From the UHGV virus genome UHGV-1351772: a DNA stretch of 64,000 nucleotides; one strand, given 5' to 3'. Origin of the DNA: a virus. Below the pieces are notes generated by a model. The model made no database searches. It saw nothing but the letters and a program-made list of their open reading frames with translations, and was not told the origin of the DNA. The position numbers and the translations under genes were made by a program. Positions 5,379 through 60,028 of the stretch are shown here, one piece after another. Each line of letters begins with the position of its first letter. Position 1 is the stretch's first letter.

Positions 5379-5540
5379 TTATCTCCTTACAGGTGGTTGG
5401 TGAACATTGTGGTTGTTAACCGTTTTCGGTGCCGCAACGAGGCCGAGACGAACATATTCGTCCATGCGTTGGTTAAACTGAATTTGTTTTTCACGATTTC
5501 GCATCGCGGTATTGGACATCTGTATTTGATATTCGTTCAT
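5379..5540 (-). CDS. small protein, paralog 1 of 3 (about 53 aa)
   Basis: Below ORF-track size cutoff; manual translation MNEYQIQMSNTAMRNREKQIQFNQRMDEYVRLGLVAAPK...; shares xFNxRxxExxxLGL core with 5695..5865; RBS-like aaagg upstream. Confidence 0.4.
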   Translation of the reverse strand: MNEYQIQMSNTAMRNREKQIQFNQRMDEYVRLGLVAAPKTVNNHNVHQPPVRR

Positions 5541-5600
5541 TTTTCATTACCTTTCGTAATGTTGTAAAAACGTCAACAACTTTATGTGTTGACACCGTAC

Positions 5601-5690
5601 AGCAGAGACTGTTCCGCCAGTCTCTGCTGCTTTAACTTCTCTTTCGAAAAGTTAAAGCTATGAAAAGGGGTGCTTCACCACCCCTTTATT
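5601..5690 (-). repeat. three-hairpin RNA module, copy 1
   Basis: Tandem stem-loops: cagcagagactg/cagtctctgctg, gctttaac...gttaaagc (loop ttctctttcgaaaa), ggggtg/cacccc + T-run. Confidence 0.55.
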
Positions 5691-5694
5691 TTAT

Positions 5695-5865
5695 TTAGTA
5701 GTTACTTCTCCTTTCGGTGAAGATTTGTACTCGAGGATTATTAGAAGGTTTAAGCCTTTTATTTAATCCTAGCTGTTGAACTTCTCTTAATCGTTCATTA
5801 AACCTCGCTTGTTCTGCATAGCTGTTTGAGATAGAAGTAAAGATACGTGTATTGTTGTTAGTCAT
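5695..5865 (-). CDS. small protein, paralog 2 of 3 (about 56 aa)
   Basis: Manual translation MTNNNTRIFTSISNSYAEQARFNERLREVQQLGLNKRL...; similar core to paralog 1. Confidence 0.4.
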   Translation of the reverse strand: MTNNNTRIFTSISNSYAEQARFNERLREVQQLGLNKRLKPSNNPRVQIFTERRSNY

Positions 5866-5922: not shown

Positions 5923-6005
5923 TAGGGACTGTACCGGCAGTCCCTACTGCTTTATCTTCTCTTTCGAAAAGATAAAGCGCCTATGGGGAGTGTTGGCGCA
6001 CTCCC
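5923..6005 (-). repeat. three-hairpin RNA module, copy 2
   Basis: Same architecture as copy 1; middle hairpin gctttatc...gataaagc has the identical loop with compensatory stem change (aac/gtt to atc/gat). Confidence 0.55.
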
Positions 6006-6015
6006 CTTTAGGTTG

Positions 6016-6168
6016 TTACCTCCTCTCAACTGCCAACTGGGTGTTTCTTGAATATGCAACTTTGGGCTGTGTTAACGTTGGTTGCGCTATTTCACTAACC
6101 CTTCGCTGAAACTCAAGTTGTTTTGTTGACAACTCGTTTAACCGTCGAAACAGCAGTTCATGTTTCAT
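6016..6168 (-). CDS. small protein, paralog 3 of 3 (about 50 aa)
   Basis: Manual translation MKHELLFRRLNELSTKQLEFQRRVSEIAQ...; weaker similarity to paralogs 1 and 2. Confidence 0.3.
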   Translation of the reverse strand: MKHELLFRRLNELSTKQLEFQRRVSEIAQPTLTQPKVAYSRNTQLAVERR

Positions 6169-6244
6169 GAACTCATCACCTATGTCGATTTTGCGAAAAT
6201 AAATAAAGTGTACCCCTAATCCTTTTCGGGATTAGGGGTTGCTT

Positions 6245-7060
6245 TTATTTAGTCGCTACGTATTGAACATGGCCACATTCCTTACATTCCACGTTGGCTT
6301 TCGGGATTGTCAGGCCGGTTAAAGGAACACGTATTTGGTACTGTGCTCCACATTCTTCACAAACAAAATCGTGTTCTGGATAAACACGACCTTCTAATTT
6401 CTCTTCTTTCCTTAGTGTGCCTGCTAAGAACAGCATCGCACCTAACGCTTCATTAATCTGCTGTTCCCATTCTCCGTCTAACGGGTAAGCGAACGCACGA
6501 GTCAACGTTTCCACCATCTCTGGAGTATTACTTACATAAACGTGTTTCAGTTCAAACTCAACACGCTGTAAGCCAAACAATACGCGTGCTGTTACAGTAA
6601 CATTATCCAACGTTTGTGCAAATACAACGGGATTATCGTCGCCGTACATCGCGAATAACGCAGCACGTTCGTATTCGATATCACTCCACTCGATTAGTTC
6701 TACAGATTTAATCTCTTCCGCAATCGTAGCATTACCGAACGTTTCATGTTCCAATAATCCGACGATAACTTCATTCAACGATTTCAATTGCTGTAAACGA
6801 ATCACAGGATCGGTGTTCACGATAAGCAAACGATGCATTCTGGATTTCAACCAATTAATCGTTCCTTCTACACCGCCCCCAAACGAGCAGATGCTTATCA
6901 CTTCAGGTTCGCGAAGGATAAGAGTGGATTTTCCTGCTGCCGTACTCAAGTAGAGTTTAAAAGACTTATCGCTGGACTCTGCAACGATGGCAATGTCTTC
7001 AGTTGGAACAAAGTTTTCATTGCTCAGTCCACGCGGAAAATAATCTTTAATGGTAATCAT
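6245..7060 (-). CDS. hypothetical protein with C-terminal CxxC...CxxC zinc-ribbon; possible P-loop-like segment
   Basis: 271 aa; CEECG...CKECG near C-terminus; STAAGKST segment resembles a deviant Walker A but is not canonical. Confidence 0.5.
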   Translation of the reverse strand: MITIKDYFPRGLSNENFVPTEDIAIVAESSDKSFKLYLSTAAGKSTLILREPEVISICSFGGGVEGTINWLKSRMHRLLIVNTDPVIRLQQLKSLNEVIVGLLEHETFGNATIAEEIKSVELIEWSDIEYERAALFAMYGDDNPVVFAQTLDNVTVTARVLFGLQRVEFELKHVYVSNTPEMVETLTRAFAYPLDGEWEQQINEALGAMLFLAGTLRKEEKLEGRVYPEHDFVCEECGAQYQIRVPLTGLTIPKANVECKECGHVQYVATK

Positions 7061-13133: not shown

Positions 13134-13466
13134 CTATAACAGATAAGGTATACCTTCAAAGATAATCTCGTCGTTAGCGAAGCCAACAGACGCTTCCTCA
13201 CCCCCAGAGGTGGTTGCCCAAATCTCTGCCGCAAAACGCTGATTGTTAATCAACAGCCCACGGTTGTTTTCGAACAACACTATCAAGACCAACCTGACGC
13301 TTTTATCTTGATGTAAACGGCGTATAAAGGCGTGCTTTACAGAGGAAGGATACCAGGTGAAGCGTGCTATTTTCCCTTTCGCAACTCTACCTAAAAAGAG
13401 CTTTTCTAAGGTTACAAACTCAGTGCCCATCTCTTTTCCAAATCTGATAATGCCAACGTGGGACAT
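13134..13466 (-). CDS. hypothetical small protein (start uncertain)
   Basis: 110-aa ORF overlapping 3-prime end of DHFR gene; internal Met at about 13430 would remove most of the overlap. Confidence 0.3.
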   Translation of the reverse strand: MSHVGIIRFGKEMGTEFVTLEKLFLGRVAKGKIARFTWYPSSVKHAFIRRLHQDKSVRLVLIVLFENNRGLLINNQRFAAEIWATTSGGEEASVGFANDEIIFEGIPYLL

Positions 13467-13956
13467 CGCTATCCGGTTTGGAAGCGTGCGTTAAGTTATA
13501 AACCAGTCTAAACTTGTTACGATCGATTTCAGGAAAGAACGCATCTGCACCATCGACTTTAACTTCTACGCGTGACAAGTAAATCTTATCCACATAAGGT
13601 AACGCCTGATGGTAAATTTCTGCGCCGCCGATAATAAAGATTTCCTTAGGATAACCCTTTTTCTCAACCTCGGTTTTGAGGAATTCAATAATCGAACCCA
13701 TTTCACCCTTAAGGTTAAGCACCCCATCGATATCGGGCACACCACCAGGTCTTCTCGTTAACACGACATGGTGGCGATTTGGTAGGGGTTTATACCCTAA
13801 CGATTCCCATGTCTTGCTTCCCATCACAATAACTTTACCTGACGTAAGAGCCTTAAAATTCTTTAAGTCATCGGGAATACGCCACGGCAGTTTATTGTCT
13901 TTCCCAATTTCGTTATTCAACCCAGCAGCAGCTATCATCGAAACTGTAATTGTCAT
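13420..13956 (-). CDS. folA: dihydrofolate reductase
   Basis: Classic DHFR sequence: MTITVSMIAAAGLNNEIGKDNKLPWRIPDDLKNF...VIVMGSKTWESLG...PLPNRHHVVLTR...IFIIGGAEIYHQALPYVDKIYLSRVEV; start moved from ORF-track 14145 to ATG at 13954..13956, which has a GGAG RBS. Confidence 0.85.
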   Translation of the reverse strand: MTITVSMIAAAGLNNEIGKDNKLPWRIPDDLKNFKALTSGKVIVMGSKTWESLGYKPLPNRHHVVLTRRPGGVPDIDGVLNLKGEMGSIIEFLKTEVEKKGYPKEIFIIGGAEIYHQALPYVDKIYLSRVEVKVDGADAFFPEIDRNKFRLVYNLTHASKPDSDVPRWHYQIWKRDGH

Positions 13957-14258
13957 TTCTTTATCTCCAGTGAGCCTCTTAAATGGCGTATAAAATCTTT
14001 TCGGGTATACCGACTCGTTTTGTACTGATCGGCTAAATGGTAAACGGTAACGTACCGCCCTTTGGCTTCCATATGCAAATGCGTTATATTGCCATCGTTC
14101 GTAGGGAGTGGTCTGATCAGAGGAATCATCAAATCCCCATTCCAACCAGGTTCATTAAGTCTCGGTATCAGTAATCGAATGTCTAGCCGTTTTACGCAGT
14201 ACACCACATTACTTTCCGGCAACTTAACAACACATATCGCATCGGCTTTGAGTTTCAT
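13953..14258 (-). CDS. hypothetical protein
   Basis: 101-aa ORF; stop overlaps DHFR start (coupled ATGA-type junction). Confidence 0.5.
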   Translation of the reverse strand: MKLKADAICVVKLPESNVVYCVKRLDIRLLIPRLNEPGWNGDLMIPLIRPLPTNDGNITHLHMEAKGRYVTVYHLADQYKTSRYTRKDFIRHLRGSLEIKK

Positions 14259-26728: not shown

Positions 26729-28096
26729 TTATTCGACATTAAACATGGCTGAAGCAATACGAAGATCGTTCGACATATACTTCCCAATCGCACGCTGGTA
26801 ATCAACTGCAGCACGTGAGCGACGACCCTTCGGCGTTAAAGTATTCCAGATAAACTGATACAAGTTATCTTTATCTTTTACGGTTTCTAATAACTTGTCG
26901 ATAACCGCAATACCATCTAAAATACGTTTACGTTGCTCGTTAGCCGCCTTCGTATTTTTGTCTTTAATCGTATTGAGTTCTTCAACGAGTGTACGTCGCA
27001 TTGCCTCAAAACGCTGCTGCGGCGGATCGTAAATGGTGTTATCCGGGTCATTTAAGATCATTCCGAACGTCACGGAAATCACTGGAATAATTGGAATCGT
27101 AGAAGAGACTATTAACGCGGTCACGCGGAAAAGTTCTACTGTCAAATGGACACCCATGTTCATATACGCTGAGTTCCGCAGCAAATAGAACGAACTGGTT
27201 TCCATTTTATACAGTGCAGAGGCCAGATAAGGAGCGCCTCCGAAACGGGAAGCAAAATCATCCGCAGCACGTTCCCACGTCCTGTTAGCAAAGCCTTGAC
27301 TACCGCTAATGAACGGACGATCTAATAACAGCTGTGTGACCAAGTGCATGTAGACGTTTTCTTTTTTGTACTCAGTACAAATCGTTTCTGGCTGATTCAC
27401 TTTCGTGTTCAGCATCTTCTCTACGTCTTTAACAATGCGCAAGCGGACAGTTTGGTCTTCTGTTTCCATGATGCGGTTAGCCGCAGCATCTGCCAGCAAA
27501 TCAGTCACCACGGTACGCATTAGCGTACGGAAATAATAATAGATGTGGCCGACTTCATGAAGAATCACCGAGGCGATTTCCAGATCGGTCAGATTTAATT
27601 TTTCCAGCAGCACCGGGGTAAGATAAAGCGGAGAACCCACTTTGCTTAAATCGCCACTGATTTTTGCGCTGCTGTCATCGATTGATGTGTTCAGTTCGTT
27701 TTCTTTGATGAACTTACTGTACATATCCAGGTCTTTGTTACCTGCGTACAGTGCGCGAGTCATCGATGCAATGATTGGACTGTTTGCATCCAATTTCGGT
27801 GGTTCTACGCCTGCAAAAGCAACGTCAACAAGACCCAGTTCGCTACCGTTCTTAAAGTGAATCGTAATGCCGATATTCTTAAATACCCAATCCGAAACCC
27901 CGGCACTTTCGTAGCCAGCAGGACTGAAATCGCCTGCTCCACGAAACTTAGCAATAATATCAGCCAATTCTGCCAGCTTCTTTTTGTCTTGGAATTTAAT
28001 CGATTCTGCGGCTACAACCTTTGCATCCGCAACTGATGCAATGTGATTTTGCCAATATCCCATTTGTGTTTCCTTTTGAGAAATTACATTACCCAC
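26729..28096 (-). CDS. hypothetical protein
   Basis: 455-aa ORF. Confidence 0.55.
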   Translation of the reverse strand: MGNVISQKETQMGYWQNHIASVADAKVVAAESIKFQDKKKLAELADIIAKFRGAGDFSPAGYESAGVSDWVFKNIGITIHFKNGSELGLVDVAFAGVEPPKLDANSPIIASMTRALYAGNKDLDMYSKFIKENELNTSIDDSSAKISGDLSKVGSPLYLTPVLLEKLNLTDLEIASVILHEVGHIYYYFRTLMRTVVTDLLADAAANRIMETEDQTVRLRIVKDVEKMLNTKVNQPETICTEYKKENVYMHLVTQLLLDRPFISGSQGFANRTWERAADDFASRFGGAPYLASALYKMETSSFYLLRNSAYMNMGVHLTVELFRVTALIVSSTIPIIPVISVTFGMILNDPDNTIYDPPQQRFEAMRRTLVEELNTIKDKNTKAANEQRKRILDGIAVIDKLLETVKDKDNLYQFIWNTLTPKGRRSRAAVDYQRAIGKYMSNDLRIASAMFNVE

Positions 28097-28134: not shown

Positions 28135-29916
28135 ATGAATAACTATTACGCACCGGAAGACGTTATTGCCAAGGAGTGCAAGTTTGTTTCTTACGCAACC
28201 GATCAGCAGAAAGAAAACGACTTCGTGCTCATAAAGGAGGTCGTCCATACTAAAGATGGCAGATATATCCCACGAATTGTCATGCGTGAAAATCTGAAAC
28301 GGCCCATCTACATTACTTTACCACAACATCGTAACCACAAGGAAAAGAAAGAATACGAAGAACGTAGTAAGTGCCAGGAATATTTAACAACGGACGTAAT
28401 GATGTCCTCAACCATACAGATGGGTCTGGGGATTCGTTTTCCCGATAAAAAGAAACCACTCCGTCAGGTTTGTACTTCACCGTATGTTTACTGGGCTGAT
28501 TTGCCCATTACTAGCTGGATTAAAGAAAAGTACATACGTAAATGGCCTAATGCTGTTTCACCTAACCGCATCTGTGTATACGACGTGGAAACTCGAGAAG
28601 AAGACAAGTCTCGAGACCCCTGGATTATGAGTTTTGTTTTAGACGACGAAATTCATTTCTTTGCTACGAAAGACTACGTCACCCGTTGCGGACGTGAAAA
28701 CTTTGAAGCGCGACTCGTCAAACGTGCTCAAGAATTGCTTTCTAAAATCGCTTTTCGTGGAAAAGACGAGAACGACAACCCTATCGTTAAATACAAAAAC
28801 GTTATCGACGGTTACAAAATCTTCGTTTACGAATGTCTCAATTCGGGTTGTTGTATTCAACGGATGTTTGAGGAAATTCACCCTCGTCTCCCTGACTTAC
28901 TCGTCGCATGGAACCACGAGTTCGATATTTCACGTATGTTAGAAGCTTTAGAAGCAGCGGGCATTCCACCGGAAGACGTCTTCTGTCATCCAGACGTGCC
29001 GAAACAGTACCGTCGTGTCTACTTTAAGAAAGACGAAGCATCGAAGAAAACGGAATCAAAGTCATTAACAAAAGCGCCTTCGCAACAGTGGCACATTCTT
29101 TATTGTACGGCGTCATTCTACTGTGTAGATGCAATGTGTCTATTCCGTTCATTGCGTGTACACGAGGGACAACGCCCCTCTTACAAACTTAACGCGATAC
29201 TGGAAACCGAGTTGGGTTTAAACAAGTTGGACTTACCAGAACTACCCTACGAGGAAAAGTTGGAATGGCACTTAAAGGCGCAGAAAGATTTCCCGTTAGA
29301 ATACTGCGTTTATAACATCTTCGATAACTTGATGATTGTTCTGCTGGATAAAAAGACGAACGATCTGTCTTCTGCTATTTCAGTTTTGGCGGGTTATTCG
29401 ATGTATGATATTTTCCCTTCTCTACCGAAGCGAATCTGTATTGCATACACGTATTACCTCTATGAACAGGGTCTGGTTATCGGTTGTGTGGGTAGCGCGA
29501 TGCGTAACGATTTCGACAATGAAGTCATTGGGACGGATGGTTGGATTGTTACATTGACTGCGTGTATGAACGCAGAGAATGGGCTACGAAACATCATCAA
29601 GGAAGTTGATGATTTCTACACGGCTTTCCGTGGGCAAACTGCGGATGCTGACTTAACCCAGGCATACCCATCTGCAACGAACATGATGAACCAGTCTCGT
29701 GAAACAACGTTAATCGAGCTATTGAGCATTCACGGTGTTCCTGAAGAGGTGCGGCGTCGTGTCGGTATTAACCTTACTGCGGGGCGTGTCAATGCAATGG
29801 AAATCGCGACAGATTTCTTCCTGTTGCCCGATAAAAACGACGTCTTAGAAGCTTTTCTACGTAGACAAGGAGAAACGATTACCGATCCTTTTGAATATAT
29901 CAAAGCTGCAAAGTAA
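28135..29916 (+). CDS. family-B DNA polymerase, N-terminal part (3-5 exonuclease domain plus motif A)
   Basis: Exo I VYDVETRE, Exo II WNHEFDI, YKLNAILETELGLNKLDL block, Exo III YCVYNIFDNL, motif A DLTQAYPS; start moved to ATG 28135 to avoid overlap with convergent gene. Confidence 0.7.
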   Translation: MNNYYAPEDVIAKECKFVSYATDQQKENDFVLIKEVVHTKDGRYIPRIVMRENLKRPIYITLPQHRNHKEKKEYEERSKCQEYLTTDVMMSSTIQMGLGIRFPDKKKPLRQVCTSPYVYWADLPITSWIKEKYIRKWPNAVSPNRICVYDVETREEDKSRDPWIMSFVLDDEIHFFATKDYVTRCGRENFEARLVKRAQELLSKIAFRGKDENDNPIVKYKNVIDGYKIFVYECLNSGCCIQRMFEEIHPRLPDLLVAWNHEFDISRMLEALEAAGIPPEDVFCHPDVPKQYRRVYFKKDEASKKTESKSLTKAPSQQWHILYCTASFYCVDAMCLFRSLRVHEGQRPSYKLNAILETELGLNKLDLPELPYEEKLEWHLKAQKDFPLEYCVYNIFDNLMIVLLDKKTNDLSSAISVLAGYSMYDIFPSLPKRICIAYTYYLYEQGLVIGCVGSAMRNDFDNEVIGTDGWIVTLTACMNAENGLRNIIKEVDDFYTAFRGQTADADLTQAYPSATNMMNQSRETTLIELLSIHGVPEEVRRRVGINLTAGRVNAMEIATDFFLLPDKNDVLEAFLRRQGETITDPFEYIKAAK

Positions 29917-51801: not shown

Positions 51802-53759
51802 TTACCCCGCCAATTTTAATAATTCCGAGTCAAGCGCGATACCGGCTTCCAAGTCCTCTTCAGTATCCTGGAAGAAACTGTTTATGTTGCTGATATTCTC
51901 GTTATGGAGAATCATGCAACTCGAAACCTCGTCCACATTCGTGCTTGACATAAACCCGTTGTCTGGGCGATAAGCCATGCCCAGTTCCATTTCAATCTGG
52001 TCGATTGCCAATCTACATTGTAACTGGTCGCCATCGAAATCCTGTTTGTCCACTCCATTCCTTTTGGAGCAGGTGTGCAATGACACCCTCCCATGCTTTC
52101 ACATGGGCACAGACTATATCATAACCGTAGGTATTGCTACCCGTAGGTCTCCCCCACTTCGCCGCTAAACTAAGCAGCTACTCTACTCGGTTTTACCCTT
52201 TCGATAGTCGTTGAACGATTTTCATCGCTGCTGGTTATCCATTATCACAACCCTTAGCATTATTGGTTAGCATAGGTTATCTTACGAATTGTTTCTGACT
52301 TTCGCCACCCTGTCGGGATCGTAAGCTTTAGGGGTTTCCAGCAATTCGAGGGATACGCACTAGAGGTTTCCCGTCTAGTGGGCCAGTGTTTAGCATTAGG
52401 TGCTTTGATGACGCGATCAGAAATACGCAGAGAACATTGTGTTACATCTGTCAGTACCGCTGAGATGAACAATGTCTGAATAGAAAGTTGAACCAATGTT
52501 GGGTTACGCAGAACTTCCAACATTAAGCCGAATCCGCCGGGGGATTCTTTAATCAACTCATTAATAATTTCATGTACCAACGGTACATACTGCATTGCCG
52601 CAAATGCAATGATGCGCTCACATTGTCGAGGTGTATAATCACGTCGACCTAACTTGTTCTCAATGTGAACACTCGCCAACGGAACCAACCAACGCCAAGG
52701 CGCAATAACTTTCAACGCATCATGAGGTTCAGAGATAGGAGAGATAGTCACACGTCCGCCCCACGGTACGTGTGTTGACCCGAGTTTTGCCCGATAGAAC
52801 CCAGGTTTACCTTCCATCACTTCCTGACGATGGTCAATATAGAAATACGCAAGCTGTCGATTCGCTTTGATCGCACGACGAATAATAAATCGTGGTTCGA
52901 TACGGCGTGCATTCGTGTACAACAACGCCACATTTTTTACTGCGTCGATAGCGCTGGTATAAACCGGATCGATAAAAATACCTTGTCGGCGCTCCTCCGT
53001 AACGATCAGTTTTGATGAAATAATCGGAAGGTGTCTTGGAAAGAATGAGAACGATTGTTCCTGAAAGAACTCACGCCATTCTAAGCGCACGCGCTCACTC
53101 TCATAACGGTTATTTTTCGTTGGTGGATAAATCTCCTTCCAAGCTTCCGGAGACGTAAGGATATTAAAGACGGTTCGATGGTGGTCGATAAAGTTTCGAA
53201 TTCCCCGTTCGAAGCCATGTTCGCCGAGTATTCTTTTCACCACGCGAGCACGTGTTCCCTCGTCCTTTTCTGGATGGTAGTACGGATCGATTAGCCACAG
53301 CAGTAAATCAGACCCGCGTTCTACCGTCACTTTGTTACGATTAAATTTTTTCAGCTTAGAGCCAAAGAAGGCATTAAAGAGAGACCAAAAACGTGGATTG
53401 ATAAAGTTACCCATCTCATCGGGAGCGCGTAACCAGACATCAGACGTAATCCGATGTTCAGAAACAACATGTCCGCAATGTGGGCAACGAAGCCCAAGAT
53501 TATAACGATGGGTAATAGGTGATTCGCAGGTCAGACTGCAAATAGGAGCCGAGTTGAGTGTTTCATCAACGATTCGGTTTTGGAGTATTTGGTTAATCAT
53601 CTCCGACGCTTCGATGGTATCCATCGTTGCAGCAACGTCATTGATAATAATCGGTGGTTTGTAGCCTTTTTCCTCCGCTTCTTGTATACAGTCACGTAAC
53701 ATCTTGTCGTGACTAATTAGTCGCCCCGAAATCCCGTAATATTCTAGTTTATGTTCCAC
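51802..53759 (-). CDS. multisubunit RNA polymerase beta-prime-like subunit, N-terminal portion with catalytic DFDGD; interrupted by a group I intron (exon 1 about 52446..53759, exon 2 about 51802..52087)
   Basis: Exon 1 has zinc ribbon CSLTCESPITHRYNLGLRCPHCG, GKPGFYRAKLG...GGRVTISP (cf. [20 protein letters not shown]) and LRNPTLVQLSIQ (cf. [12 protein letters not shown]); exon 2 has LHTCSKRNGVDKQDFDGDQL (cf. [18 protein letters not shown]); ORF-track splits this into two ORFs and reads through the intron. Confidence 0.75.
52088..52446 (-). other. group I self-splicing intron (ORF-less), boundaries approximate within about 10 nt
   Basis: On the gene strand, in order: P-like gaattgctggaaac (52331..52350), Q-like aaccagcagcg (52226..52236), R-like gttcaacgactat (52204..52216), S-like gatatagtctg (52110..52120), then a P9-like hairpin cccatg-tgaaag-catggg; P3 (ctgg/ccag) and P7 (gacta/tagtc) pairings possible. 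Confidence 0.7.
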
Positions 53760-53789
53760 GCCGAATCCTCAACAAAAAAAGAGAGGGAA

Positions 53790-53814
53790 GGGACAGGGGG
53801 TTTTCCCCTGTCCC
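53790..53814 (-). terminator. rho-independent terminator after 53844..55691
   Basis: gggacagggg-gtttt-cccctgtccc hairpin followed by T-run on minus strand. Confidence 0.6.
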
Positions 53815-53843
53815 TCAACTACTGCTTACTACTTACCAACTTA

Positions 53844-55691
53844 TTAGAAAGTCGGACGCCAGTCAGTTGCAGCGAAGGACATACCGAAATCGCTACCAAA
53901 TGCGTTAGGACCGCTACCAGACAGCGCGAAGTTCTCATTACCCGTGTTAACAAACACAGAGTGAGTGAGGCTGTTCGCTGCGGTAACACCATTCACCTGG
54001 AAGTTGCAGTTTTCAGTAATGTATTCCACCAGTGCTTTACCAAACAGCGGATTGATCGCCAGGTCAGACGCTTCACCCGTTACCTGCGGCTGTTTGCTAC
54101 CGAACATGGACGCAGCCATTTTCAGCAGGTACAGACGCTGGTCACGCGCATTCAGATAGCGGTGAGAGTAGGACTGTGCACTGATGTAGTCGATCGCATC
54201 GCGTTGGTTATCACCCACTTTAGTCAGAGCGGAAACCAAGTCCATATCCTGGAAGCTGCGTTTCTGGCTGTTGCTGAAATACTGACCAGAGATGGTCGGG
54301 CAACCGGCAATAACAACGTGTTTGCACTCGAAGTTGGTGACATTGCCCAGCAGTGCTTTGAAGCGAGTGCTGAACTTAGTCGCGCCGTTGCTGGCCATGT
54401 TATCCAGGATATTGAACAGGGTGTACAGTGCGTTGGTGTTACCCATCCCGATTTCGCTCAGGAGAGTAGACAGGCCACCGATACCGTTACCTGCACGATG
54501 GTTCACCACCAGGGCCGCAGTCGGGTTAGCGAAGGTGTCCAGGCATTTCTCGATAACTTCACGGTTACCGTCGATTTTGCTCAGGTCAGGTTTTTCGCTG
54601 CCCCATTCTACATACTCCAGAACGCGGGAGAAGCGGCGATCGGTTTTGTTCAGCGACTGCATGAAACGTTCACGCCAGCCACCAATAGTGGCGATTTGTG
54701 CGAACGCGGCCAGTTCAATCAGCTGACGCTCGATAGGTGCCATTGCCCCAGAGGACTGAGAATCCATCAGGGAAACAACCACTTCGGCTTCCAGCTGACG
54801 CAGGTCCTGAGTACCGTTAGTCAGGGTTTGAGGTTTACCTTTATGGCGGAGGTTGATGTAACCAACACCTGCAACGCTCGGATAATTCTGGAGGCGTTCA
54901 GAAGAGAACAGCGTCGGGTTATTATCGTTGTTGCCAGTGCGAGTGTGGTCAACCACAACCATCAGGTCAGCACGTTGTGCAGAACCGTTAACGTCAGTTA
55001 CAGAACCTTCTTCAACTACGCTGACTTGCGCGGTGAAGCGATCAGAACGGGTCATTTTCAGGTAGCCCAGGTAGCCGGAATGACGACCGAAGATACCCAA
55101 TGCAATCTGGCCCATGAGCTGGTTAGCCCATTCTTCGTTCATGGTTTTACCCAGTTCCGGTACGCAGTTCATTACCATGAACTGTACGCTTGGCAGATTG
55201 TGCTGAGTTGCAATCTGGTTAGTGATGTTGTTCATCACACCTTCTTGACTGAACAGCTGCGCCAGGGTGTAGTAGTTTTCTTTACCGTTGATTTCGTAGA
55301 AACGGATGGACTGGCCATGTTCAAAGAACAGGATACCATAGAGCCATTCGTTATGGTTATCGCCGGACGGACCAGCCACGTATGCAGCAGAACCCATTTC
55401 AGAGTTGATGCCGTCAATAACACCCCAACGGAAGTTACGCAGGTATGTGTTCTTCTCCGCCATCTTCTCAATCAGGCTAGTGAACTGAGAAGCAGTGGAC
55501 ACGAAAGACATGTATCCGAAAGCTTTATCGAAAGTAGAGATGTTTTTAGACATCCCACCAAAAGCGTTGGCCGCATTGGTATTATCCACAGTAGCAGCTC
55601 CCGCGCCACCGAAAGACGGAATTGGATCTGCAGCGGAACCAGCAGCACCAGTCACAACGTCGTTTTGATTGTCAATAAACTCTTTAGCCAT
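53844..55691 (-). CDS. abundant 615-aa protein; candidate phage nuclear-shell protein (chimallin), alternatively a virion structural protein
   Basis: Strong codon bias; AAGGA RBS; two tandem consensus promoter motifs upstream; own terminator; size and extended N/C tails are compatible with chimallin, but no direct sequence verification is possible here. Confidence 0.4.
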   Translation of the reverse strand: MAKEFIDNQNDVVTGAAGSAADPIPSFGGAGAATVDNTNAANAFGGMSKNISTFDKAFGYMSFVSTASQFTSLIEKMAEKNTYLRNFRWGVIDGINSEMGSAAYVAGPSGDNHNEWLYGILFFEHGQSIRFYEINGKENYYTLAQLFSQEGVMNNITNQIATQHNLPSVQFMVMNCVPELGKTMNEEWANQLMGQIALGIFGRHSGYLGYLKMTRSDRFTAQVSVVEEGSVTDVNGSAQRADLMVVVDHTRTGNNDNNPTLFSSERLQNYPSVAGVGYINLRHKGKPQTLTNGTQDLRQLEAEVVVSLMDSQSSGAMAPIERQLIELAAFAQIATIGGWRERFMQSLNKTDRRFSRVLEYVEWGSEKPDLSKIDGNREVIEKCLDTFANPTAALVVNHRAGNGIGGLSTLLSEIGMGNTNALYTLFNILDNMASNGATKFSTRFKALLGNVTNFECKHVVIAGCPTISGQYFSNSQKRSFQDMDLVSALTKVGDNQRDAIDYISAQSYSHRYLNARDQRLYLLKMAASMFGSKQPQVTGEASDLAINPLFGKALVEYITENCNFQVNGVTAANSLTHSVFVNTGNENFALSGSGPNAFGSDFGMSFAATDWRPTF

Positions 55692-55740
55692 TTTACTTAA
55701 TCCTTATAAGGTTTAATACAATTGTAGTGTTGGTTCACGT

Positions 55741-57193: not shown

Positions 57194-59506
57194 TCATTCG
57201 TCGTCAAAAACCTCTTCTTCGTCTTCATCTTCTTCGTCATCCCCTGCCCTCTCCGATTTCTTAACGTATTGTACTTCCGCCAATTCCTTGTACAATTCGT
57301 CTTTCTCCTCGGCCTTGTCGTAGAAATCTGACAACAACCTCATCCTGTTTTTATCCATCATGAACACACCTAAGCATTCGAGAATGTGATAGTACGGTTC
57401 AACCGTAGAGAAAGCAGTACGACGGATATCTGCAATATCGATCAGTTCTTTAGGGATACCATAGTTTTCCACCAAATGTTCTGGCAGAATCAGTGTTTTA
57501 TATTTACGGAAGTTTGTCTCCTCAAACCACGCCGATGCACCGTTCTTGATAATCGGATCTTCGATACTGTCAATCCACTCTTTAATCTTCGTTTTGTTTT
57601 CCAATGTTACCGGAAGCTTCACTGCATCATACGGCGGTTCTTCCAAATAACCAAACTTCGGACCAAAGATAGCATTATACATTCGGTGGTAATGGTAGTT
57701 CTTCTCATCCTTCTCGTTATAAGCGCTACGTTCCTTGATGTTCGTCGTTTTCAAATACCCTGGATTCCCAGAACGAATAGAATCCATAATCGTGTGTTCG
57801 ATTTGGGCAACCTTTTCCAGCAACGGAATGATTTCGATCTGATCGCCACGGGCAACAACTTCACATAACCCTTTGATGGTGTTCTTAAACTCCTTCATGA
57901 TAATCGGAGGAATGTTAGACGTACGTAAAGACACACCTTTTACTTCCAGCTCGGGATCTTTTTTCAGCTGGCCTTCCTGTCCAGTAATCAATGAGAAGTA
58001 ATGTTTTGCTTTAGTGGTTAATGCAAACGAATCAAACTTAAATTCATTCTTCATTGCATACAGGAACAAACGCTCCTTCGCCACACCGATGTTTGCTGAC
58101 ATACTCGCCATCAAGTGCCGTAAGTGCTGTGTCGCAATATAGATCATCGCATTGGAAACACGGGTAGCTACCTCACCGTAATGTTTACCGGTGTACCAGA
58201 TTGCCCACCATTGCGCAGTCATCATTGTAGAGTCAGTATCAGATACTACCCCTACACGACGAACCACATCCGGCATTCGAGCAATATTGATTGGTAAGTT
58301 TTTCGTGGTAAGAATATTGCGAATCAGTAGCGCGTATTTACCGATCGTTTTCTGTAAGAACACTGCGGAACGAATTAATTCTTTATACCCATCCTGCTGT
58401 TCCCACGGCAACGGTTTTTTATTACCATCAAGTTTCTTAACGTCACTGAACGCTTTACCCATCGGTACTACGTCGGTACGGAACTGCGAGATAATAATCT
58501 GCATATCACCATCGATGGTCTTCTCAGCAGCAACCCAGTCCGTATCAGTCCAGCCTTCGGTATCAACACGCACATCTGGGGTAATTAATGCGCCAATAAA
58601 GTCGCGCATGAATTTATCGTTGTATTTAGCCAGGTGGAAAAAATCACCCATGTAAACAAACGCCGCTCGCGTCAACGCTGATACATTACTAACGTAATGC
58701 TCAACGAACTCCATCCCCTCTTCGTTCTTAAAGTAGAAATCGGCAGAATAATGAATAACCTCCATCACCTCTTCTACCGACGGATAATGAAGCTCATACG
58801 TCTCCATACATTTCTTAAAGCTATTCCAATCGGTTAAAGTACCGATAGATAAGAAATGATCGATAATGCGTGACGGGGTTTCGTAATGTCTATTACCTCC
58901 TAATAAACGCTCATTTCCAGCATTGCCGAACGAAGTTGCAGTACGACAAGTGGACGTCAGTGTGGAGTGTGAGGACTGATTAAAAAGGATCGTGAACGGG
59001 GAGGAAAATGCGCCCGACATACCGTTGTTCAGCGTCTTGACCGCATTCTGTTCGTTCTTTTTGTTGATATTTAATACTACATTGCCCGCTGCTGCTGCTG
59101 CAAACATTTCCTTTTTTACCGCATCACGTTTCGCTACGTTAGCTGCTGTGAATTCAGACAACTTAGAACGTTTGACATGTTCGGGCAAATAAAAAGTTAA
59201 CGAAGGTGCGGAGATAATCTGTTTGTCAATGACGGTTTTAAATAACTTATCGACGGTAGTGTATTTTTCCTCACGATCGCCCGTTTTCTGATTACGCACC
59301 CACATCTTACACACGGGTGATTCGGTTGCTAACTCACCGCCAGGTGCAATAAGAGCATCAACTTCCTGACGACAAAACTCTAAAGGGTATTTTTGTGCGG
59401 TCACGTTATGAATGTATAACGCGACTTGTTCGCGGTAGGCATCGTTGACATCGATATCACGATGGTATTCATCTACCGTTAAACGAAAAGGAGAAATGTA
59501 TTCCAC
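57194..59506 (-). CDS. family-B DNA polymerase, C-terminal (polymerase) part, putative
   Basis: Motif C-like VVSDTDS, downstream KxY-like TKAKHYF, possible motif B-like KTLNNGMSGAF; highly acidic C-terminal tail; complements the exonuclease/motif A gene at 28135..29916. Confidence 0.5.
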   Translation of the reverse strand: MEYISPFRLTVDEYHRDIDVNDAYREQVALYIHNVTAQKYPLEFCRQEVDALIAPGGELATESPVCKMWVRNQKTGDREEKYTTVDKLFKTVIDKQIISAPSLTFYLPEHVKRSKLSEFTAANVAKRDAVKKEMFAAAAAGNVVLNINKKNEQNAVKTLNNGMSGAFSSPFTILFNQSSHSTLTSTCRTATSFGNAGNERLLGGNRHYETPSRIIDHFLSIGTLTDWNSFKKCMETYELHYPSVEEVMEVIHYSADFYFKNEEGMEFVEHYVSNVSALTRAAFVYMGDFFHLAKYNDKFMRDFIGALITPDVRVDTEGWTDTDWVAAEKTIDGDMQIIISQFRTDVVPMGKAFSDVKKLDGNKKPLPWEQQDGYKELIRSAVFLQKTIGKYALLIRNILTTKNLPINIARMPDVVRRVGVVSDTDSTMMTAQWWAIWYTGKHYGEVATRVSNAMIYIATQHLRHLMASMSANIGVAKERLFLYAMKNEFKFDSFALTTKAKHYFSLITGQEGQLKKDPELEVKGVSLRTSNIPPIIMKEFKNTIKGLCEVVARGDQIEIIPLLEKVAQIEHTIMDSIRSGNPGYLKTTNIKERSAYNEKDEKNYHYHRMYNAIFGPKFGYLEEPPYDAVKLPVTLENKTKIKEWIDSIEDPIIKNGASAWFEETNFRKYKTLILPEHLVENYGIPKELIDIADIRRTAFSTVEPYYHILECLGVFMMDKNRMRLLSDFYDKAEEKDELYKELAEVQYVKKSERAGDDEEDEDEEEVFDDE

Positions 59507-59608: not shown

Positions 59609-60028
59609 TTAACCCGCAGCGTTTTCAATGATCTCGATTTCCACATCATTAAACCCGCGTGCTGCCAACGCAGCTTCCAGGTCTTCTTTCTCTTGCTTGT
59701 TATCGAGCTGTACAACAAAACGTGCTGTCAAACTGGTAATTACCCTTACTTCGCGTACCCACGCATCAGCCGCAACGCCTACCTTACCTGTAGAATCGCG
59801 GAACAGCATATAGTTATACGCAGTGAGGTCATTTGAAGGTTGTGCTACTAACGACGAATAAATATTCTTCTGGATAGCAGCCAGATCTTCGCCTGCGGTT
59901 TTTGCAAACTCATAGCCGACTTTAGACGCGAGTACACGCACTCGCGTTTCATTACCTTTTAACGGAGTATCGTAAACAATATTTACGATAGACCCTGGTT
60001 CAATGTTACTAAAATCAAACATTATCAC
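59609..60028 (-). CDS. hypothetical small protein
   Basis: 139-aa ORF; first of a same-strand array of short genes. Confidence 0.45.
   Translation of the reverse strand: MIMFDFSNIEPGSIVNIVYDTPLKGNETRVRVLASKVGYEFAKTAGEDLAAIQKNIYSSLVAQPSNDLTAYNYMLFRDSTGKVGVAADAWVREVRVITSLTARFVVQLDNKQEKEDLEAALAARGFNDVEIEIIENAAG

Follow-up and report, generated by a model that had tools for sequence, protein, structure and literature searches.

Motifs of a family-B DNA polymerase distributed over two distant genes in a phiKZ-like jumbo phage

INTRODUCTION

Where is the rest of a DNA polymerase to be found when the gene that begins it ends too early? The question is raised by the open reading frame (ORF) at positions 28135..29916 of the viral DNA analyzed here, which carries the 3'-5' exonuclease motifs and motif A of a family-B enzyme and then terminates. 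A first-pass annotation, made from the sequence alone, located further polymerase motifs in a gene at 57194..59506 and proposed a true split of the polymerase gene. Hereafter, the products of these two genes are called P1 and P2, and the window refers to the whole stretch of 64 kb that was analyzed.

A family-B DNA polymerase split in this manner has been described for the phages SPN3US, phiKZ and OBP (PMC5105663; PMC5694885; PMC7824862). In Thomas et al. (2016/2017), the name 'split subunit DNA polymerase' designates SPN3US gp44 together with gp18, and the observation is credited to the work of Cornelissen et al. (2012) on phage OBP. The corresponding enzyme of phiKZ was recognized ten years after the sequencing of its genome (Thomas et al.). 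A preprint dated 1 October 2026 describes phiKZ DNAP-N and DNAP-C as a stable 1:1 complex with family-B homology, visualized by cryo-EM at 2.1 Å (Basu et al., PMC13648687). The same source reports a third polymerase subunit, Rhc, combining an RNase H and a clamp-like domain, and mentions that no gp45-like clamp gene is known in the phiKZ-like phage family.

In the present study, we examine P1 and P2 from their motifs, folds, distribution and gene context. The two proteins can be regarded with high confidence as the two halves of one replicative family-B DNA polymerase of a phiKZ-like jumbo phage belonging to the SPN3US/Asesino lineage, likely operating as a noncovalent 1:1 heterodimer with a composite active site. 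The feature is a known and experimentally characterized hallmark of the phiKZ-like (chimallivirus) nucleus-forming phages, of which the window holds an ordinary member, and what is biologically significant about it comes from the studies published on OBP, SPN3US and phiKZ rather than from this window. The additions made here are modest and consist of evidence for a cut within the palm, implying a composite site, and of a clade-specific acidic tail on the DNAP-C subunit. The enzyme is the replicase of nucleus-forming phages now used in therapy and in defence-evasion research. The practical consequence of the present case concerns chiefly annotation: both genes are labeled 'hypothetical protein' in many deposited genomes, where the pair should be named as one replicative polymerase with an N-terminal and a C-terminal subunit.

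THE N-TERMINAL SUBUNIT

The gene at 28135..29916 (+) encodes a family-B subunit of the DNAP-N type, 593 aa long from its ATG. A longer reading from a TTG at 28021 is possible; the ATG is favored because a database homologue with 95% identity over 100% coverage also counts 593 aa. P1 comprises the N-terminal and 3'-5' exonuclease domains of a family-B enzyme, followed by the initial portion of the palm, which bears motif A. The initial description of this ORF, with its exonuclease motif set, its motif A and its stop about 90 residues further, proved accurate: all motifs are present and conserved in 30 homologues, and P1 ends 87 residues past D506 of motif A.

Family alignment A1 (30 sequences, identity down to 29%) defines these motifs precisely. 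Exo I (D150-V-E152, or DVE 150-152; 28582..28590, +) aligns with DIE of RB69 and both its acidic residues are invariant. Exo II (N260-HEF-D264, within WNHEFD 259-264; 28912..28926, +) aligns with RB69 'WNvesFDi'; D264 is invariant and N260 nearly so (at least 90%). Exo III (Y393-NIF-D397, or YNIFD 393-397; 29311..29325, +), with Y393 and D397 invariant, corresponds to RB69 'YNiiD'. Motif A (D504-A-D506-LTQAYPS, with DLTQAYPS at 506-513; 29644..29673, +) is aligned with RB69 F-D411-LTSLYPS, and its residues D504, D506, Y511 and P512 do not vary across the family. The counterparts of motif A read DLDIVSTYPN in phiKZ and DYDMGAFYPS in a distant homologue, P0063.

P1 matches PHROG 3011 'DNA polymerase' over its full length (1.4e-250). 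Pfam, suggested earlier as a check on both proteins, gave no meaningful match with P1 alone, and 5 of the 30 family members reached PF03104 weakly. The A1 profile aligned with RB69 gp43 (whole-sequence E 3.3e-5) in colinear fashion at residues 90-231 for Exo I and Exo II, 270-380 for Exo III and 406-430 for motif A including D411. By itself, the motif A segment scores 1.0 bit and is not significant; motif A was assigned in P1 because it occurs in the same order as the other RB69 matches and because it is invariant. The AlphaFold2 (AF2) model of P1 has a mean pLDDT of 80.9, and its residues 1-450 mostly exceed 85. Residues 455-553, motif A included, remain below 50 in the chain folded alone, as expected for a segment needing the other chain. 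The top Foldseek match of this model is the N-terminal/exonuclease half of RB69 gp43 (E 3.6e-13, ~470 aligned columns), and P1 can be described as an RB69-like N-terminal and exonuclease module extended by the motif A segment.

THE C-TERMINAL SUBUNIT

P2 is a subunit of the DNAP-C type, comprising the fingers, the remaining palm and the thumb. Its gene (57194..59506, -) starts at a GTG preceded by the Shine-Dalgarno sequence AGAGG and yields a protein of 770 aa; this start is backed by a 770-aa homologue at 96% identity. The protein matches Pfam PF20286 (divDNApol, 'Divergent Family B DNA polymerase') throughout, over positions 3-705 of the 705 of the profile (4.5e-278, 924.7 bits for a cut-off of 25.7), and PHROG 2927 with E = 0. 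Residues 94-189 additionally show a weak similarity to PF00136 (E 1.3e-4), whose 21.4 bits lie just under the 23-bit cut-off. When single sequences were used to search the PDB sequences, neither P1 nor P2 found a match; only the family profiles reached RB69 and Pol zeta.

The assignment of motif C and of a KxY motif to this second gene, 27 kb away on the opposite strand, is borne out by family alignment A2 (32 sequences, identity down to 34%). Motif C (D423-T-D425-S, residues 423-426; 58229..58240, -) is invariant at all four positions. In the KxY motif (K501-H-Y503; 57998..58006, -), K501 and Y503 are invariant, and the A2 profile aligns this part of P2 with the KKRY region of RB69 (K705-KRY). 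Motif B, whose position had been considered uncertain, turns out to be real: it lies in the fingers as K157-TL-N160-N161-GM-S164-G165 (59012..59038, -), its five numbered residues are invariant, and the A2 profile aligns it with the fingers/motif B of Pol zeta, 'KLLANVTYG' (E 0.0016). The canonical Tyr of Kx3NSxYG is replaced in P2 by an invariant Ser (NNGMSG).

Motifs B and C are separated by 266 residues in P2 versus ~61 in RB69, in agreement with the unusually long insert that had been predicted before motif C. The additional length corresponds to a lineage-specific, multi-helical insert at residues ~177-398 (58313..58978, -), the helices of which are modeled mostly with pLDDT of 86-98; an insert at this place in this polymerase group has been described by Iyer et al. 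(2021, PMC7824862). Overall, the AF2 model of P2 (pLDDT 83.8) displays long finger helices, the helical insert and a beta-rich palm and thumb. Since P2 is modeled with this polymerase fold, its DTDS is not coincidental, and the alternative, raised at the outset, of a second gene with a different fold is eliminated.

The C-terminus of P2 carries an acidic tail, DDEEDEDEEEVFDDE, at residues 754-770 (57197..57247, -), modeled with pLDDT below 50. Comparison of the A2 tails shows that it sits on an extension of ~40 residues found in SPN3US-like members and in a few others. This tail may constitute a docking element for a replication partner.

CONSERVATION OF THE GENE SPLIT

The genes of P1 and P2 lie on opposite strands, 27.3 kb apart, and each possesses its own start, Shine-Dalgarno sequence and stop. 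Between them are found 18 ORFs of at least 150 aa on their own strand, among which RNAP subunits and a helicase. With tblastn, the two halves were retrieved from 300 and 299 phage records as separate genes, at distances of 27-93 kb in the nine records for which both positions were listed. Among the hosts are Pseudomonas, Erwinia, Salmonella, Vibrio, Serratia, Aeromonas, Klebsiella and Ralstonia.

Separate genes could still give rise to a single polypeptide if a split intein or trans-splicing introns linked the two products at the protein or RNA level. Phages of this group do have active group I introns, with one present in the window and another in a relative's P1 homologue, and in MIJ3, which is a different jumbo phage, an intein interrupts the polymerase B gene. 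Such joining is nevertheless extremely improbable here. It would have to operate on genes with separate starts, Shine-Dalgarno sequences and stops, located 27 kb apart on opposite strands; Rfam detects no intron at either end of the P1 or P2 gene, and Pfam no Hint/intein domain in either protein. Furthermore, the C-terminus of P1 and the N-terminus of P2 consist of conserved family-specific sequence, and phiKZ DNAP-N and DNAP-C are reported as a two-subunit complex (PMC13648687). The claim of a true gene split, as opposed to an intron or a frameshift, is thus upheld by the opposite strands, by the lack of an intein or of end introns in these searches and by the maintenance of the split in ~300 records.

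Fused ancestors were sought with the P1 profile among 1.84 billion representatives, of which 610 proteins matched at E<=1e-30. No DNAP-N/DNAP-C fusion occurs among the best 150 of the 610, because their lengths amount to only 489-894 aa. The longest, the metagenomic protein P0188 (894 aa), was considered as a candidate fusion and rejected, its C-terminal extension being unrelated to DNAP-C. This extension spans ~330 residues and is rich in acidic and alanine residues.

A third split of the polymerase, suggested by P1 homologues of 478-492 aa, was likewise rejected. The DNAP-N gene of a relative (locus L002) contains a group I intron (5443..5864; RF00028, 51.4 bits) after an ORF of 478 aa and ~35 codons before motif A; the downstream ORF (5949..6266), read as exon 2, carries motif A. 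The short homologues are therefore attributed to interruption by an intron and not to a further split. Several further representatives, among them P0238, P0309 and P0314, end right at the aspartates of motif A (...GHVAD, ...THFGD), which suggests either a second recurrent interruption site at the catalytic motif or truncated contigs. P0063 is a very distant DNAP-N-like protein of 610 aa (25% identity, PF03104) from a contig of 281,782 bp and ends ~80 residues after its DYDMGAFYPS. Because P0063 also terminates soon after motif A, the same cut may extend beyond the close relatives of phiKZ and SPN3US.

POSITION OF THE BREAK AND A PROPOSED COMPOSITE ACTIVE SITE

Motif A is located on P1 whereas motifs B, C and KxY are located on P2. 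Upstream of motif B, residues 1-156 of P2 contain no invariant acidic residue across A2, the best column reaching 88% D/E. We place the break within the palm, after the motif A strand and before the fingers, on account of the invariant D504 and D506 in the tail of P1, of the lack of an equivalent in P2 1-156 and of the unfolded state of the P1 tail in the model. Summed over both chains, motifs A and B are ~244 residues apart versus 149 in RB69; ~95 extra residues consequently flank the junction.

A cut at a domain boundary would lead to a different enzyme, in which P1 is a free-standing proofreading exonuclease, P2 is self-sufficient with a complete palm and DLTQAYPS is a relic or a coincidence. 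The description given by Iyer et al. (2021, PMC7824862) leans in this direction, since their group 1 polymerase has no exonuclease fused to it; the exonuclease, 'encoded elsewhere', could join it as a separate protein, and they do not place motif A on the exonuclease chain; the alignment of motif A to RB69 is, moreover, without significance by itself. Against this stand the invariance of D504, D506, Y511 and P512 across the family, phiKZ and the distant P0063, and the missing invariant acidic residue upstream of motif B in P2. Alignment of the A2 profile with family-B polymerases does not begin until the strand that immediately precedes the fingers. The predicted structures agree: the P1 tail does not fold by itself, and in P2 the residues leading up to motif C (~399-422) are modeled without regular secondary structure, as would fit a sheet that is not complete. 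A domain-boundary cut therefore appears very unlikely.

With a break inside the palm, the two-metal active site would be assembled from both chains, D506 of P1 acting together with D423 and D425 of P2. P1 contributes the proofreading 3'-5' exonuclease along with the N-terminal domain, as well as the opening segment of the palm, where the aspartate of motif A is found; P2 contributes the fingers with motif B, the helical insert of ~200 residues, the motif C (DTDS) hairpin of the palm, the KxY primer contact and the thumb. Physical assembly of P1 with P2, most likely in view of their orthology to phiKZ DNAP-N and DNAP-C, would then yield a noncovalent 1:1 heterodimer. The present data demonstrate the motif content, folds and orthology of the two proteins as well as the conservation of their split; the assembly and the composite site are deduced from these. 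A family-B active site can apparently be built from two polypeptides.

A more elaborate reading can be offered tentatively, and as a whole we hold it to be rather doubtful. In addition to the palm break with metal ligands from two polypeptides, it takes the ~95 extra junction residues (P1 ~515-593 and P2 1-95) as a family-specific docking module and supposes that the SPN3US-like clade added the acidic DNAP-C tail for docking to Rhc, the helicase, an SSB or a similar partner. The part concerning the palm break and the junction module is probably already visible in the unpublished cryo-EM structure of the phiKZ enzyme. If true, both parts of this reading would refine the published picture.

COMPARISON WITH KNOWN SPLIT AND SINGLE-CHAIN POLYMERASES

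The closest phage records to P1 and P2 are those of Erwinia phage Asesino and Salmonella phage SPN3US, at 75-80% amino acid identity by tblastn; an E. coli-associated contig is nearer still, with 95-96% identity to the two proteins. The comparison with split polymerases of related jumbo phages, recommended along with the first-pass annotation, establishes orthology in both SPN3US and phiKZ. SPN3US is the closest characterized model phage, with gp44 (YP_009153338.1) orthologous to P1 at 75% and gp18 (YP_009153312.1) orthologous to P2 at ~79% amino acid identity, both named 'DNA polymerase' in RefSeq. It shares with the window the local gene order and the opposite-strand arrangement at ~27 kb, and differs only by a sequence divergence of ~20-25%.

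The phiKZ orthologues of P1 and P2 are gp82 (PHIKZ082, DNAP-N) and gp50 (PHIKZ050, DNAP-C), both annotated as DNA polymerase. The alignments are colinear over the full length at 34-35% identity, the figure for P1 being that obtained with the phiKZ-type KTN4_108 protein. Both systems distribute the motifs between the chains in the same way, keep the genes separate and distant, and possess the helical insert ahead of motif C. Unlike P1, gp82 carries ~60 additional residues within its exonuclease region, which divide the alignment into two segments. Unlike P2, gp50 ends in ...SDFY and is devoid of the ~40-residue C-terminal extension bearing the acidic tail. Finally, the phiKZ genes occupy the same strand ~36 kb apart whereas those of the window lie on opposite strands at 27 kb.

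Gp43 of RB69/T4 displays Exo I-III and motifs A, B, C and KxY in the same order and is the best structural match for both P1 and P2 in a PDB set that did not include the phiKZ split-polymerase structure. It differs from them in being a single polypeptide, in its spacings (A to B, 149 versus ~244 residues; B to C, ~61 versus 266) and in the Tyr of motif B, which is Ser in P2. Two-polypeptide family-B enzymes are also known from cellular genes in the euryarchaeal split PolB, e.g. Methanothermobacter PolB1, where the break falls in or near the polymerase domain. Both this enzyme and the engineered split Pfu polymerase are presumed to have origins independent of that of P1 and P2 and other break positions. 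In split Pfu, likewise composed of two polypeptides, the break is found at the fingertip (PMC3061061).

GENE NEIGHBORHOOD AND OTHER POLYMERASES

The window contains 56 ORFs with a length of 150 aa or more, of which 36 were scanned together with two shorter neighbors, the largest 20 against PHROGs only and most others against Pfam. The matches point, among others, to a major head protein of the phiKZ type and internal head proteins, to five RNAP subunits, to a DnaB-like helicase and to a dihydrofolate reductase. The gene of the last (13420..14145, -; PF00186, 2.6e-45) lies among the head-protein genes. No other DNA polymerase was encountered with PHROGs or Pfam among the ORFs scanned, and a complete single-chain polymerase, which had been envisaged as grounds against the split, is accordingly not among them in these 64 kb.

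This census bears on the idea that P1 and P2 are decaying remnants in a phage replicated by another polymerase, its own or that of the host. The idea draws on the window showing just 64 kb of a genome of ~225-245 kb, and its probability is nonetheless negligible: none of the catalytic residues varies in the hundreds of divergent representatives, the ORFs of P1 and P2 are free of frameshifts and internal stops, the window ORFs scanned include no further polymerase, and the published abstract on chimalliviruses lists only DNAP-N and DNAP-C as polymerase proteins (PMC13648687).

Immediately upstream of the DNAP-C gene lies a gene of 139 aa with an SH3 fold (59609..60028, -), which matches Pfam PF20287 SH3DP (1.1e-30), defined as 'SH3 fold domain associated with phage DNA polymerases'. 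The neighborhood of DNAP-C and SH3DP genes has been reported by Iyer et al. (2021, PMC7824862); the abstract of PMC13648687 names Rhc, and not an SH3DP protein, beside DNAP-N and DNAP-C. It is possible that the protein encoded at 59609..60028 is an accessory polymerase subunit. With this neighbor, the RNAP subunit genes, the DnaB-like helicase and the capsid gene, P1 and P2 have the genomic surroundings typical of a phiKZ-like phage. The RNase H domain that characterizes Rhc was not detected in Pfam scans of 28 further ORFs, mostly of 150-400 aa, those above 400 aa having been compared with PHROGs only and the window representing ~1/4 of the genome.

The only Rfam intron of the window is a group I intron (52090..52407, -; RF00028, 56.9 bits, E 8.6e-12) in an RNAP subunit gene (PHROG 2987), flanked by the ORFs 52260..53759 (-) and 51802..52086 (-). 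In the former, upstream of the intron, homology ends at about residue 456. The latter carries 'KQDFDGDQL', with a beta-prime-like catalytic DFDGD, and the intron is therefore located just before the active-site motif. Introns in RNAP genes of the phiKZ group have been depicted by Thomas et al. (2016).

The gene adjoining that of P1 in the opposite direction (26729..28096, -) encodes a HExxH motif (ILHEVGH) and matches weakly the Pfam M48 peptidase family (E 0.0058). In locus L002, the same neighbor, again with a faint M48 match, is found two genes upstream of the DNAP-N gene, and the gene occupying this position in SPN3US is annotated 'putative virion structural protein 1'. Further along the window, ORFs 53751..55700 (+) and 53844..55691 (-) overlap almost fully on opposite strands; the first, of 649 aa, is probably a shadow ORF, because a family match was obtained only for the minus-strand ORF (PHROG 8316, 1.2e-232).
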